Shown one piece after another: positions 8,606 through 27,384 of a stretch of DNA of 64,000 bases (within the stretch, counting starts at the first letter, position 1; the number at the start of each line of letters is the position of its first letter). Position numbers and translations under genes: made by a program. The DNA comes from Octopus vulgaris. Its lineage: Eukaryota. The notes beneath the pieces are model-generated. The model worked only from the letters and a program-made list of their open reading frames with translations, was not told where the DNA came from and made no database searches. Location: the NCBI GenBank assembly GCA_951406725.2, contig OX597832.1, forward strand, positions 68,324,001 to 68,388,000, written 5' to 3'.

Positions 8606-9705
8606 TTTTTCTTTATTGGCCACACAGGGCTGAACACAGAGGGGACAAATACAAATGTAGAGCTTTTCTTTTCGCAAATGTAAAAGAAAAAGGAAAAAAA
8701 CATAAAAAATGTAAAATTCGATCAAAAGGGTCGAGAAAAAAAGACGATCAAAAGGGATCATGTATCACAGAAGAAATTTTTTAAATGTAAGAAGGAAGAT
8801 TATGTTTATCTTTGGAAAGAAATTCCTACGGAAAAGAGCATGGTAACCACAAGCAGGGAGGGAATAAACACGTGAGAGCAAAGTGCTCTCTCTCTCTCTG
8901 TCTTTTTTCGATTTACAGGATCATGCTCAAAGTGGTTTCGTTGCTCGCTTGCACCATCTTTGCTACATTCACCCACCTTCGTTTGAAACTTTCACGAGAC
9001 AAAACCTGCCTCTCCAGTCTCACCTTCTTTTTCAAGTAGTACTTGAAAAAGTTGATGAGCAATTGGCCAGAGAGGTAAGTGTTTGTCTCTAATCCTTTTG
9101 CTCGAGTCCACGACACATTCTTTCACCATGGTCACCAGTATGATGAAGACTGCCTTGCCTTCCCGGTTGAGGGAAGGCGGCGGAGCAATGAGAATGACAC
9201 ACTCAGCCGACAGGCAGACTTGTGCCATATGTGACAGCAGCTGTTCAGCATAAGCCCACAGGACCGAAATGGTTGGACACTGCACGAGTACATACAAGAC
9301 AGTTTCGTTGCTCTGACCACATCTCGGGCAAGTCGGTTCGGTGTGTTTTGAACCATACCTGCAGAGCTTATCCCAAACAGGTAATGCTATTCAATAGCAC
9401 TGCCAGGCCAGGGATATTTGGTGATTGGCCATAGGTCCCGGCCCAAAAGTTGTCCTGAACATGCAGGTCAAGTGTTCCTTGTCAACATCCAGACTCTGCC
9501 TGAGAACGTCGTCACACCTCCCCTCCACTAATCCGCTATAGAACGCCTTTGTTGTAATGAAGTCGCACAAGTTTGTTCCTGGACGGCAGAGTAGCTTGAG
9601 AGCAACGTGACACTCACAGTGCCATTCACTTAGCCTCGGTCATGTTTGATCCATGACTGCAGTTCAGCTAAGTAGACGAGCTGCGGGACAGCATGCCACA
9701 CAAGT
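8605..9705 (-). mobile_element. Tx1/L1-clade LINE, 3' fragment (ORF2 C-terminus and 3' UTR)
   Basis: Minus-strand translation gives CPRCGQSNETVL(Y)VLVQCP (degenerate ORF2 CCHC knuckle), then ...LWAYAEQLL...KKKVRLERQVLSRESFKRRW...stop, then a UTR with AATAAA (8612-8617). Flanked by (GATA)n/(GACA)n. Confidence 0.8.
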
Positions 9706-18812: not shown

Positions 18813-19319
18813 ATTAGAAATATTAAATTTCTAAATATCTCAGAGAGATATGAGCAGTGGTGGAACGATAGAGCGGTTGTATACTGTCAACTTAACATGA
18901 CAGTACAATAGAGGGAATTTCACCACCGTTATTTAGCCCTAGGAAGCATCAACACTTACTGTCGGCGTTTGGTGATCAGGAAATAAACTTTACTGATAAA
19001 AAAATATATATATGTTTACAAAGTCTAGACAGCTAGCAGATCATGATACTCCAGACTGATGACGAGCAAGACTCAGAAAAATGTCATGTCTCTGGATGCA
19101 GGCCTAGCTGTTGGGCGTGCTTGTCTCCCTCTTTGTAAACATAAGGACACAGGAAATGTATCAAGGCCGACAGGAAGCATTGATGCTCCCTAGGGCTAAA
19201 TAGCAGTGGTGGGATTCTCTTTATGGGACTGTCACATTAAGTTGATAGTATACAACTGCTCTATCGTTCTACCACCGCTCATATCTCTCTGAGATATTTA
19301 GCAATTTAATATTTCTAAT
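18813..19319. mobile_element. Hammerhead-bearing repeat unit with inverted partial copy (Penelope pLTR-like)
   Basis: Arms 18813-18966 and 19166-19319 are reverse complements. Motif TCCAGA-CTGATGA-CGAGCAAGACTCA-GAAA-AATGTCAT-GTC-TCTGGA at 19050-19096. Confidence 0.7.
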
Positions 19320-19345
19320 TTTGGGGATCAGTGAATAAACTTCAC

Positions 19346-19394
<49 letters not shown>

Positions 19395-19399
19395 ATATG

Positions 19400-19448
<49 letters not shown>

Positions 19449-19537
19449 GTATGTATATATATATATATGTATGTATATATATATATATACGTTTACAAAG
19501 GCTAGACTGGTATCTTCAGCTAGCAGGCCATGCTACT

Positions 19538-21193
19538 TTAGATGGTAACCTCGCGCGAGAGTGTTTGTTCTGTTTTTCGGATTTGCGGTTGGGAGTTGAA
19601 TTTTGTTGTTGCATATTGTTGTTGAAACCTGTTGCTTTGTGTTGAACCTTATAATTGTTGAATTCTTTGTTGGGTATGCAAGCCCAGACTTATGCAAAAG
19701 CAGCCAGCAAAAGCCTGTCTGCTGACGCATTACAGTTAAAAGAAGTAATTATTGAGAAGGAAAATCTGAGGAAATATTATGACAGCTTCAAAAAGGAAGG
19801 AGACTGTCTAAGGATTACACCACCAGAAGACGATGTTAAAAAAGCAGAGAGAAAAACGATAACATACAGAAAATGGAATGTGGTCTCAAAAAGAATAGAA
19901 GTGGCAAAAGTTGAAGAGATTGAAAAGTGTTTACAAGAAATAAAAGAAAGAAGTACCTTCTACAATAGAGTTAGAAAATACGCAACAGTAGAAGTTCGCT
20001 TCAAAAATGATGATGAAGCAAAAAGGAATGCAACAACAGCGTTGATATCAGATAAGTGAGTATTATTACCTACTTACTGTGGTGGATGAGCGGCGAAGGT
20101 GTGAATAAGCAAAATTCCACCGGAACTTGATACCGAAAGAATAGTAGCTGCAATAATTTACAACTGCAAGGAGGACGTGGACATACTCAAGGTGGAAAAG
20201 TTGAATGAAATAAACTGGTGGGGTTATGCGGTGGAAGCCCTAATCCACATAACCCTGCCAGATTTGTATAAAAATCCCGGAGGAGTTGGTGTTTCCCAAT
20301 GAGACACGACTGAGAGTCCTGGTGGAGGGGAGATCTCCAGTGTGTTATAAATGTAAGAGCAGAGGACACATGAAGGATGTGTGTCCTCAAAGAGAAATAC
20401 AAGAGAAGAAGATAACACTGGAGGAAGAAATAAAAGCTTTGACAGGGGAGTTAGAAAGAGAGAATGTAGAACTACAAGCGGAAGAAGAGATCATGACAAC
20501 AGATAATATGGAAAGTGGCAACGAGCTAGAGAAGGAGATAGAAAAGGAGAGAACAGAAGGAAAAGAGGATAGAAAGTGAACACGGGTGGAATCACCACCC
20601 AAAGACCAAAAAAAGAAAAAGATGAAAAAGAAGTCTACCGACGAGACAGAGGATCGAACACACGAAAGGAAAATTACAATTAAATTGAGTGAAGGTCAAA
20701 TGTTGGAGGAAATGGAAATATGGTCAACAAAAGTGGAAGAATGTCTGAAAACATGCAAGAAAGGAGGAAGAAATTTCAGAGCTGTAACGTTGTACCGAAA
20801 AGATAAAGAAATTGAGAAAAAAATAGCGATAATGAAAGGTCGAACGAGAGTGAAATTGAACCTGAGGATATACGATGACGAATTAAAGGCAGTAATATTA
20901 GATAATGAGAGGTTAAATAAATTAATGAATTTATTTCCAAATACAGTTGTGTGCATTGCGCACTACGTTCGATATGACAGTTTGCCTTGCGTTATAGAGC
21001 AGGAAGAATTACTCGTTTACATTACTGACGAACATCCCAGATAGCATAACTGCGAGCTTTGGGGGGCTTGTAAGCCATTTAATTTAATTCATTAACACTT
21101 CATTTCATATCATCCTTTCTGTATATTTGTTATATGTGCCCCATGTCCTGTATTGTTATGTCCCCTCTTCATTCAGGCCTATAATAAAGAGAA
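19538..21193 (+). mobile_element. ORF1-only non-LTR retroposon (HAL1-like, Tx1/L1-type ORF1)
   Basis: Perfect 20-bp TSD AGCTAGCAGGCCATGCTACT (19518-19537, 21194-21213); 5' UTR, a single ORF1-like frame, 3' UTR with AATAAA (21183-21188); no endonuclease or RT. Confidence 0.8.
19676..21044 (+). pseudogene. Disrupted ORF1p (gag-like, CCHC zinc knuckle)
   Basis: MQAQTYAKAA...V*ISKIPPEL...CYKCKSRGHMKDVC (CX2CX4HX4C), then an E/K-rich region and a KKKK basic patch. About 455 codons with four in-frame TGA stops and one +1 frameshift in an A run near 20270. Confidence 0.8.
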
Positions 21194-21424
21194 AGCTAGC
21201 AGGCCATGCTACTCCAGACTGATGACGAGCAAGACTCAGAAAAATGTCATGTCTCTGGATGCAGGCCTAGCTGTTGGGGGTGCTTGTCTCCCTCTTTGTA
21301 AACATAAGGACACAGGAAATGTGTCAAGGCCAACAGGAAGTGTTGATGCATCCTAGGGCTAAATAGCAGTGGTGTGATTCTCTTTATAGAACTGTCACAT
21401 TAAGTTGACAGAATACACCCGCTC
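21194..21424 (+). mobile_element. Second copy of the hammerhead-bearing repeat (3' part; its 5' part is at 19490-19537)
   Basis: Direct repeat of 19031-19260 with an identical hammerhead-like motif at 21213-21259. Confidence 0.75.
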
Positions 21425-21872
21425 AATGTAAGTCAGCCTTTTCAAATCTCTTTCTTGCTTCATGTGCCATGATGCCTGCAGAGGTTTCTAATCATGGAGC
21501 GCCAGGCCAAAGGCTGATTATTCTTTTACTTATTTCAATAAAGTTGTGATGAGACAACCCTTCCTTTCAAGGACTGTTTCAGTAGAGATGTATACATCTA
21601 TGTGTGTTTCTGTATCAATATATATACATAGATATACACATGCACACAAACACACAAACACACACACACACACATGTATTCATATATATATATATATATA
21701 TATACTCAATAATACTATAAAAATAGACAAAATTCCAGCAAAATTTCAATTTGAAAACTCCACTACAGTGGACGAAAGCGCTTGTATAAGATATATGATT
21801 TATAAAAACATGTAACATACTAATAACTATCTGTAAATATAAAACCAGCCAGATTTCTGAGTACCTCATTTC

Positions 21873-25445: not shown

Positions 25446-25479
25446 TTTGTGTCTGAAGATCATAAGGCCCTGAGGTGGA

Positions 25480-25850
25480 TCTCTCCAACTACCTGTTCTC
25501 CTTCCAGGTTAATAACAATCCTATTTTGTGGTCGTTCTCCATGGAGAAGGGGAAAATTAGTCGGAGACAGATAAATCCTTACTCAGCAGCAGGTCAAGAT
25601 AGCCCTAGCGTTTGTGAGGTTAAGTCTATGGACCCCTGCATCCTCGCCAACATGTGTAACTGCATGTTGCTGGCTGGGAAGGTTCATGACATCCTGAAGT
25701 GTGGTAAGTCCATCCATATACCCAAGAGAGCAGATGATCCTATTGATATCACCTGTTGGCAACCTTTGGCGATATGTTCTGTAGTATATTGTCTGTTTTC
25801 GAAAATGGTCGCCAGAAGAATGCTTCCCCTTAATCCTGCACAAGCTCTCA
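25480..25850 (+). mobile_element. RLE-type LINE (R2/NeSL-like) RT fragment
   Basis: SAAGQD...GKSIHIPK...DPIDITCWQPLAICSVVYCLFSKMVARRM...NPAQ resembles RT domains 0-2 (SAPGPD, IPK, WRPI, QRGF). Confidence 0.7.
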
Positions 25851-27384
25851 GGTGGTTAGGCAAACCAATCCTTGAACAACAGACTGTGGCTCACTTGGGC
25901 CAAAAATATAGGCATTGGTCAGATAAGGGTCATGGCAATGATGCTTTACCTTGGCATTTATCATCTGTTCCTCTAGCCTCTTTAGAATTGCTTGCAGTGT
26001 TCTGAATGCAGCCTTGCATGAGTAGAAATTTAAATTTCTGTTGTCAGGCTCTGGTTCGGTAGTTATAGGGCTTTTGAGTAGTGTGGAACTACCTTCCAGT
26101 CACTATTGTTCCTGGAGTATTAACACTTTTCAAGATTCTGGGCATGGCTTAATTGGCATGTTATGGAAGCAAAGTTTATAAGTGCCTTGGGAAAGGAAAA
26201 GGCCTGGGGAGTTAACCTTGGCTGCAAAACAGGAATCAAAGTCTCTCCAGTGGTTCAGTGCCCTCTTTGGTACCCTTCTGGTAACGTCAGAGTCTGTGGA
26301 ACTCTCAAGCCCTGTTAATTAATTCACACAGGAGGCCATTCCAGTGTAAAATCTGCAGCTTGCTGGTCATTGCAGCCATCTTGGCTCACTGAGTTACTGT
26401 GGTCAGACGTCCAAATCTAATGAGCAAAATGATATGACTATAAACATTCTTGTTTAAATATATCATCATAATCATTCCTCTTATCAAGAATTAAGACAAA
26501 ACTTTAGACATCCACCAAAAGAAACTCAAGAATCCAATCAGATTTGAGCAAAGAGACTCCAGAGAGCAACACTTGGATTATTTAATAAAATCTATGATAA
26601 AAAAAAGGACAGTGCACTTGCCATGAGGAGTAGAAAAATCCAACGTTTTGGAAAGAGTTCTTTTTCAATATTGCCCAAGGAAGGATTCTGTTGGAGACGT
26701 CGGCTTTGCACACTCCACAGCAAGTTTACTGTTTGCATTTTGCTGGTTTTACTAAAATCAGATTTGATTCTCAGTCTTAAGTTGCTCCCCCACCCCTTAA
26801 GGTTCTAATAGTTTTTGATAGAACACAAAATACAACAACCATTCTGATTCCTTAGAATTAAGATATGAAACATTTCTCAATCATATTTCTGATCAAACAT
26901 AACATCTGTGTCTTTGAATTAATTTACAAACTATATTAAAATTATTCTGTTGTAAATGAAAAAAATATCTAGAGAAATGTAGTATAATACCTAATTTTTT
27001 GTTTTTCATTGATTGCTGTATTGATCAGTTCATTTGTAACATAATTAATCAAAAAGAAAAATTAAAAGAAAAAATTATAATTGAAGGTTTTGATTGAAAT
27101 ATTAACGTTTTTAAAAGGAATGGTTTTCTTCCATAGAACAACCAGACATAGTTTCAGGTGGGTTATTAACCAAATGGTCAATTAAATAAATAAATTGGTT
27201 TTATATCAGAGCATGACATGATCAGGTGTAATAATGTGTTATATATATATATATATACATAAGCATATATACACACATATACACTCACAGACTGCAGCTG
27301 CATGGCTAAAATGCTTAGAATGCATACATACATATATATGTGTATGTGCGTGTGTGTGTGTGTAATATATATATGTATGTTCAT

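Follow-up and report, generated by a model that had tools for sequence, protein, structure and literature searches.

ORF1-only derivatives of LINEs are known from several lineages. HAL1, HeT-A and Ag-Sponge are multi-copy elements that encode ORF1p alone and obtain their reverse transcriptase from a partner; HAL1 arose from the L1 group, and more than one ORF1-only lineage can exist in a genome. As sources of non-autonomous LINEs in which ORF1 is present, the portions of these reports that we draw on name L1, Jockey and CR1, not Tx1 (PMC5753468, PMC5786205). Within the Tx1 clade, target-specific insertion is represented by Tx1L in Tx1D, Keno in U2, and Tx1-Mar with SINEU (PMC4494074). The repeat annotation of octopus counts 13 recently active L1-Tx1 families, and its main text, as far as we draw on it, describes none that are ORF1-only or targeted (PMC13282606). 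We found no literature description of an ORF1-only octopus family or of hammerhead-targeting LINEs; Repbase, Dfam and the library of PMC13282606 may hold these families. Here we describe a 64,000-nucleotide stretch of Octopus vulgaris DNA (the window) that carries a dead, decayed copy of a multi-copy ORF1-only retroposon. Like HAL1, its family encodes only ORF1p, is related to the L1 group, shares its genome with a further ORF1-only lineage and would depend on a partner for reverse transcriptase. An earlier sequence-only reading of this DNA had recognized the retroposon but overlooked the main feature of the locus, namely that insertion is aimed at hammerhead-bearing repeats, at a predicted transcription start.

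The insert measures 1,656 bp and lies between two copies of a 20-mer (Table 1). A scan of the window found this 20-mer exactly at these two places and with 3 mismatches at 19031, and its recurrence by chance was seen in none of 100 shuffles. The perfect 20-bp target site duplication (TSD) described in the sequence-only reading is upheld, with the refinement that the duplicated bases are part of the host repeat, an empty tandem unit of which lies 487 bp upstream. The single reconstructable ORF of about 455 codons opens with an ATG at 19676 and closes with a stop codon at 21042-21044, spanning 1,369 nt. Compared with the intact copy at locus L002, it is broken by premature TGA codons at 20057, 20087, 20102 and 20577 (3 of the 4 at CGA codons), a frameshift of net +1 near 20269 and two mutually compensating indels at 20481-20489. 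The TYA, V*ISKIPP and CX2CX4HX4C motifs are all present as had been noted, as are a separate 3' UTR and its AATAAA signal; the supposed E/K-rich tail is a charged linker that continues into a conserved C-terminal domain. The insert contains no ORF2, in agreement with the earlier statement that endonuclease and reverse transcriptase are missing, and no long direct repeat at its ends, the flanking repeats being those of the host. A poly(A) tail is a feature of L1 insertions; none follows the AATAAA of the window insert. The window copy also lacks 8 nt of the terminal hairpin of the family, which is absent from the copy at L010 as well. The insertion had been called complete: copies do have both ends in common, but the initial ~13-20 nt differ between copies and look donor-derived, so 19538 is not a conserved terminus. 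Elsewhere in the window, a 5'-truncated 3' fragment of an L1/Tx1 ORF2 lies on the reverse strand at 8940-9690 (54-73% to the ORF2 of L125), and a 179-codon open frame on the forward strand at 25466-26002 resembles, as judged by eye, a fragment of a non-LTR reverse transcriptase.

Table 1. Positions of the insert and of its host repeat in the window.
Feature	Position	Strand	Remarks
Inverted partial copy of host repeat, 157 nt	18813..18969	-	87% complementary to 19163-19319
Host repeat unit 1, ~352 bp, empty site	18968..19319	+	hammerhead core at 19056
Host repeat unit 2, 5' part	19320..19537	+	head-to-tail behind unit 1
PSE-like word ATCAGTG	19327..19333	+	185 nt from predicted start
Predicted host transcription start, ATC	19512..19514	+	inferred from spacing and from donor heads starting at ATC
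TSD, 5' copy	19518..19537	+	exact 20-mer
5' UTR	19538..19675	+	first ~13-20 nt are a variable head, probably donor-derived
ORF1 pseudogene, ~455 codons	19676..21044	+	4 stops, net +1 frameshift
Two predicted RRM-like domains	19823..20337, approximate	+	model residues ~50-220 of L002
CX2CX4HX4C zinc knuckle	20343..20384	+	Pfam zf-CCHC E 2e-4
Conserved C-terminal domain, ~110 aa	20700..21041	+	without family or atlas match
3' UTR	21045..21193	+	AATAAA at 21183-21188
TSD, 3' copy	21194..21213	+	exact 20-mer
Host repeat unit 2, 3' part	21194..21427	+	92% identical to unit 1
Type I hammerhead-like motif of host	21214..21258	+	stem I, CTGATGA 21219, stem II, GAAA 21239, GTC 21251-21253

The existence of an ORF1-only family is close to certain. 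A search of the window's own genome yielded 53 DNA matches from 40 scored of 308 candidates. Among the 30 best matches, 24 are near full length, running from position ≤55 to ≥1,641 of the insert, and 13 carry a junction duplication of 13-20 nt with at most 1 mismatch. At the protein level, 13,758 first-look candidates were obtained and 150 of them scored, many lying in open frames of 440-480 codons; the ORF at L002 is intact at 460 codons. An exact 22-nt tail pattern gave 94 genomic matches, all of which were inspected: ORF1 lies upstream in 76, no ORF was detected in 17 (some with only 1.5 kb inspectable), and 1 adjoins ORF2. An ORF2-bearing element with this exact tail was found at none of the 94 sites. 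The sequence-only reading had taken shared ends, individual TSDs and a constrained open frame as marks of a family, and these are borne out; its concern that other copies might run on into an ORF2 is not. L138/L161, considered as an autonomous partner, was rejected, being a separate LINE with its own tail that is followed by a truncated ORF1-only 3' UTR. ORF1 is under purifying selection across the family: in a set of 23 natural open frames from the clade, 22 of 22 pairs with L002 had a dN/dS of 0.09-0.29, and pN/pS was 0.23 for changes common to copies versus 0.67 for private changes (Fisher p 2e-13). The values of the window copy against L002 (dN 0.069, dS 0.098) are as expected for decay after insertion.

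Head-to-tail trains of different ORF1-only families are common, with a period of 1.7-2.0 kb, and their units are separated by the duplication without the ribozyme. The trains at L061-L064 and L071-L077 mix 2-3 ORF1-only families with a different tail, and several begin at one position within an AT-rich repeat; recent activity is suggested by protein scores that do not differ between many of these loci. At L270, a full-length LINE and an intact ORF1-only unit are stacked in one hammerhead host with matching junction words, and L117 (G000:C2:73046133-73068136) holds five tandem full-length autonomous elements with a period of ~5.4-5.7 kb, the junction read having a 17-nt host duplication. Contigs of two runs, X2 and X3, from one study whose kind is not on record cover the L002 allele; as contigs, they cannot reveal level, strand or start. 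Single X2 contigs cross each L002 junction, one extending ~146 nt beyond the predicted start, and contig depth is far lower and patchy over the unique flank. Against the L002 ORF, the contigs have 12 listed differences, none of them a stop, with 16 further differences present.

The ORF1 product is a predicted RNA-binding protein with two RRM-like domains and a CCHC knuckle. An AlphaFold model built from 42 natural sequences reached a pLDDT of 85.8 and placed both RRM-like domains N-terminal of the knuckle; folding from a single sequence gave an unusable model (pLDDT 39). The best Foldseek matches of the model were tandem RRMs (E 3e-5), and VIA-align against RRM gave Z up to 8.3 with an rmsd of 2.7 over 76 aligned residues, a match at the fold level only. 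L1 ORF1p structures were absent among the fold matches listed, which excludes nothing. In the 42 sequences, zf-CCHC was detected in 39 and Transposase_22 in none. A PDB sequence search returned zinc knuckles only, a single-sequence homolog search restricted to lengths of 252-804 returned nothing, and in the atlas the N-terminal half pointed to CCHC/ZCCHC3-RBD (0.90-0.92). For the C-terminal domain behind the charged linker, an HMM found 3 outside proteins, 1 of them from Octopus bimaculoides, and no significant match in autonomous ORF1s. Named protein relatives come from Octopus species and Argonauta. One database protein, P0123, annotated as "EPM2A-interacting 1-like", is probably a mis-annotated transposon protein, since it is 89% identical to the LINE ORF1 of L123.

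Intact two-ORF elements were reached through a zf-RVT search; their ORF1 shares 28-40% identity with that of L002 (E 1e-8 to 1e-42), and their ORF2, in the 3 tested, comprises 1,130-1,148 aa with APE, RT and zf-RVT domains. This homology agrees with the L1/Tx1-type origin proposed in the sequence-only reading. RRM plus CCHC in ORF1 is said to be consistent with Tx1 (PMC5203782), and a type I ORF1, its RRM assigned at the fold level, together with two-ORF relatives that have an APE-RT-zinc finger ORF2 would place the family with the Tx1 clade; named Tx1 elements were not among the best 120 of 1,396 matches. The family is best read as a HAL1-like, putative Tx1 derivative. A quick ORF1 tree comprised 48 rows and a careful one 21 of those 48. 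In the 21-row tree, the window clade stands apart on a long branch (100/100) with 0 of 8 autonomous rows inside it, the other ORF1-only clade is likewise separate, no autonomous sister is resolved for either of them, and a single origin of both appeared in 8% of bootstrap trees. Beside these, L184-L200 show an L1/Tx1 family (3,232 first-look candidates) followed head-to-tail, downstream of ORF2, by a ~185-bp SINE-like repeat with the same tail, often arrayed.

An autonomous APE-RT LINE probably supplies the machinery that copies the ORF1-only family in trans. No donor LINE with both ends of the family was found in the genome, ORF1 identity being 28-40% and the 3' UTR match weak. The 3' UTR profile scored best against L123, L129 and L111 (7-10 bits; shuffled maximum 2.1), copies of which occupy targets other than those of the window family, and poorly against the same-target autonomous group (≤1.7 bits). 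TAATAAAG or a close variant is common to all ends compared, and a 4-bp Watson-Crick hairpin just before TAATAAAG occurs in 15 of 24 hand-picked ends against a 5% background: 5 of 6 ORF1-only ends, 10 of 12 ends of the L115/L118 group and 0 of 6 others. A candidate partner is the decayed L162/L178/L255 group. Like the window family, it terminates with the word AATAAAGAGAAA, the host base at the junction being identical, and its copies are 86-89% alike, as in the window's subfamily.

The window insert sits in a tandem repeat whose 352-bp spacing falls within the 150-450 bp of non-LTR retrozyme units, a tandem arrangement also seen in the host at L116. Unit 1 is without 10 nt that include the predicted start, and its promoter-like word is mutated. 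The 157-nt inverted arms had suggested that the host is a MITE; this was dropped, the arms being an inverted partial copy next to a tandem dimer. Downstream of the insertion point, the host carries a predicted self-cutting type I hammerhead, to judge from its core, stems and covariation. In 61 related motifs, stems I and II are paired in 91% and 93%, against shuffle maxima of 79% and 86%, which overstate significance as the sequences are related. Positions 3 and 8 covary (C3-G8 in 43 motifs, U3-A8 in 11), GUC is present in 45 of 61, and loop III is mostly palindromic; the motifs match the hammerheads of Penelope-like elements (PLEs) and retrozymes (PMC4209133, PMC7229834). A strict hammerhead descriptor was satisfied by 12 of 26 flanks versus 5 of 3,000 random windows, and Rfam reported no hammerhead family at E ≤ 1 in 10 loci and nothing at the gathering score at other targets. 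The window's motif has a degenerate stem III. An atypical C at position 4 (CCGAUGA) was observed in 11 of the 61 cores, in the flanks of L038, L041, L046, L050, L052 and L053.

The family targets these hammerhead repeats. Under a relaxed core pattern, which has no null of its own, 61 of the 94 tails lie 20-39 nt upstream of a hammerhead-like core. By reading, 16 further tails were placed in hosts (14 start a train inside a host and 2 are in damaged or partial hosts), giving 77 of 94 in hammerhead-bearing repeats and 17 off target. A junction pattern gave 33 matches versus 1 in the control, and 24 of 26 window-family 3' ends were located in hosts by eye. For target preference, a published criterion is the occurrence of one repeat type in more than 20% of flanks (PMC4494074); here hammerhead hosts account for 61 to 77 of the 94 tails. 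The element itself does not include the ribozyme, which marks the place of landing. Autonomous elements occupy the same hosts at L116, L118, L162, L177, L178 and L268. At L400, L401 and L162, two oppositely oriented elements face one another, an arrangement that insertion into both arms of an inverted host would produce.

Related autonomous elements also use a gene. A complete U2 gene bears tandem autonomous copies at its 5' end; U2 nt 1-14 are duplicated, and the native upstream region precedes the copies. The site of Keno is internal to U2. Over 5,450 bp, the element at this type of site in L264 (U2, TSD nt 1-14) has 99.4% identity to that of L265, which lies in a hammerhead host, and 239 of 240 endonuclease residues are the same. 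An ATCAGT-like word precedes the start by 56-59 nt in 30 of 30 U1 genes and by 57-61 nt in 27 of 28 uninterrupted U2 genes, and a similar word lies 52-63 nt before the host ATC in 31 of 33 measured host sites; in one host subtype, the spacing of 52-55 nt is shorter than in U1/U2. The longer spacing in the window is due to a (TA)n expansion at ~19349-19490. In hosts, the PSE-like word is also one arm of an inverted repeat, and, since it travels with the host, it does not discriminate between readings. The foreign heads of several inserts begin exactly at a host ATC (L008, L009, L430) or at U1 +1 (L003). Such heads would mark an RNA 5' end at the ATC, whether by read-in transcription or by template switching, as proposed by Kojima for U1/U2 heads (PMC4494074). 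A LINE tail directly upstream was seen at 0 of 30 U1 and 2 of 30 U2 loci examined. In L267:1300-1520 and L063:600-700, other repeats have received related elements ~25 nt downstream of a TATA-like box, where an initiator-like word stands, a hint that targeting of transcription starts reaches past snRNA-type promoters.

We consider it probable, taking these observations together, that the window insert is a decayed copy of an old ORF1-only L1/Tx1-related retroposon that entered upstream of the host hammerhead by TSD-making insertion, was likely copied in trans by an APE-RT LINE, and was likely aimed at, and transcribed from, a predicted snRNA-type start. From the spacings, heads and ends we infer promoter-guided targeting, promoter borrowing and a partner LINE, which could operate as follows. 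Pol II would start at the host ATC and read through the element, so that the RNA carries the first 15-30 host bases as its head; Pol II is proposed because T runs in the 5' UTR would stop Pol III. The RNA would end a few bases past AAUAAA and be coated by its own ORF1p. Partner ORF2p might then bind the 4-bp terminal hairpin and prime reverse transcription at a further start; the choice of that site would probably depend on where it lies with respect to the promoter complex, plus a short sequence preference. The duplication would regenerate the site, and head-to-tail trains could accumulate because the target is restored. A broader proposal, which we offer tentatively as a possibility, is that octopus L1/Tx1 elements find snRNA-type starts by promoter position and not by endonuclease sequence, and that an ancient ORF1-only lineage parasitizes them, having swapped tails and partners, with hammerhead retrozyme promoters serving as both landing pad and transcription source in a three-tier parasite system.

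The sites could instead be set only by the DNA-sequence specificity of the partner's APE endonuclease, the link to start sites being a by-product or later selected. We regard this as unlikely, while acknowledging that endonuclease specificity is the stated main determinant in Tx1 (PMC4494074) and that U2 and host B have T-Y-ATCG-N5-CGG in common, with 14-nt duplications at both. Between L070 and L061, moreover, the ORF1 core is 89% identical and tail and target changed together, a single event that favours ORF2 over ORF1 as selector. Specificity of this kind is hard to reconcile with hosts of very different sequence after ATC being hit at the same distance from the upstream word, or with one near-identical family (L264/L265) using both U2 and host B; a short motif alone would also occur at many unrelated sites, yet the large majority of tails (77 of 94) are in hosts. 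An improbable alternative assigns target choice to ORF1p, which would tether the RNP to a promoter-bound factor (SNAPc or TBP). It would explain why ORF1 is retained, and with it the conservation of ORF1 and of its extra C-terminal domain; TRE5-A ORF1p has been proposed to bind TFIIIB, and TRE5-A.2 is an ORF1-only, trans-mobilised, promoter-targeted precedent (PMC3159450). However, ORF1 cores only ~30% identical use the same hosts, and the 89%-identical cores use different hosts with a changed tail, the latter in one event only.

Two further readings concern the nature of the element itself. Because a hammerhead follows most copies, and retrozymes and PLEs form tandem and inverted arrays (PMC7761336, PMC4209133, PMC8557442), the repeat might belong to the element, as a protein-coding retrozyme or a Penelope-mobilised unit. 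Against this, empty hosts carry a single copy of the duplicated sequence, the upstream half of the host sits 5' of the insert, and train units are separated by a duplication that has no ribozyme; 17 of 94 copies lie outside hosts and relatives insert in U2. Nor are LTR or Penelope features found, the element owning no terminal repeats and its protein being homologous to LINE ORF1, so we consider this reading very improbable. The window copy, being dead, could by itself have arisen as a single event, from an ordinary LINE that suffered a deletion or terminated prematurely. With near-full-length relatives at 24 of the 30 best matches, 0 of 94 tails in an ORF2 element and selection on shared changes, that explanation has next to no plausibility.

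The reading of a promoter-directed, trans-copied ORF1-only retroposon adds a long-lived, targeted L1/Tx1-type case in an invertebrate to those of L1, Jockey and CR1. Why non-autonomous LINEs retain ORF1 becomes testable through natural subfamilies with nearly the same ORF1 but distinct tails and targets, and LINE target switching through copies that differ at 1 of 240 endonuclease residues and sit in U2 versus a ribozyme repeat. For retrozyme-like repeats in metazoans, it can now be predicted specifically that transcription starts at ATC from a U1/U2-type promoter. Promoter-guided APE LINE insertion, if true, would be a new LINE targeting mode in animals, with relevance to site-specific integration tools.

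The likeness to HAL1 proposed in the sequence-only reading holds by design, both being ORF1-only, but the octopus family is not HAL1 proper: its ORF1 is of type I (RRM-like plus CCHC), in contrast to the mammalian Transposase_22 protein of type II (coiled coil, RRM, CTD; PMC5203782), and it has no poly(A), is targeted and resides in a cephalopod. By analogy, we regard TRE5-A.2 of Dictyostelium as the closest mechanistic precedent and Tx1-Mar with SINEU as the closest within Tx1. TRE5-A.2 is likewise a derivative with ORF1 alone; it is mobilised in trans and lands a set distance away from the promoter of a small RNA, and recognition of its 3' structure by ORF2 may be likened to the hairpin step proposed here (PMC3159450). 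TRE5-A lands ~50 bp upstream of tRNA genes via TFIIIC/TFIIIB and has its own promoter module (PMC3159450), whereas insertions of the octopus family fall within the initial ~30 bp of predicted snRNA-type units, and its ORF1 has diverged far from every autonomous ORF1 found. Target-specific Tx1 LINEs likewise hit mobile elements or U2, form tandem insertions around the duplication and carry U1/U2 heads; transcription from the flank has been proposed for them, as for octopus, and they have non-autonomous passengers with the same target (PMC4494074). The octopus elements differ in that their targets are hammerhead repeats and U2 nt 1-14, one near-identical family is found on both, and the passenger is protein-coding. 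Finally, the host resembles metazoan non-LTR retrozymes and PLE hammerheads in its ~350-bp tandem units, type I hammerhead, palindromic loop III, extra base before stem II, U3-A8 variant and inverted partial copies; a predicted snRNA-type promoter within the unit and a role as LINE target are features of the octopus host that are not described for retrozymes in the parts of these reports that we draw on (PMC7229834, PMC7761336, PMC4209133). The host, known from its sequence, further differs from retrozymes in the C at position 4 in some of its cores.
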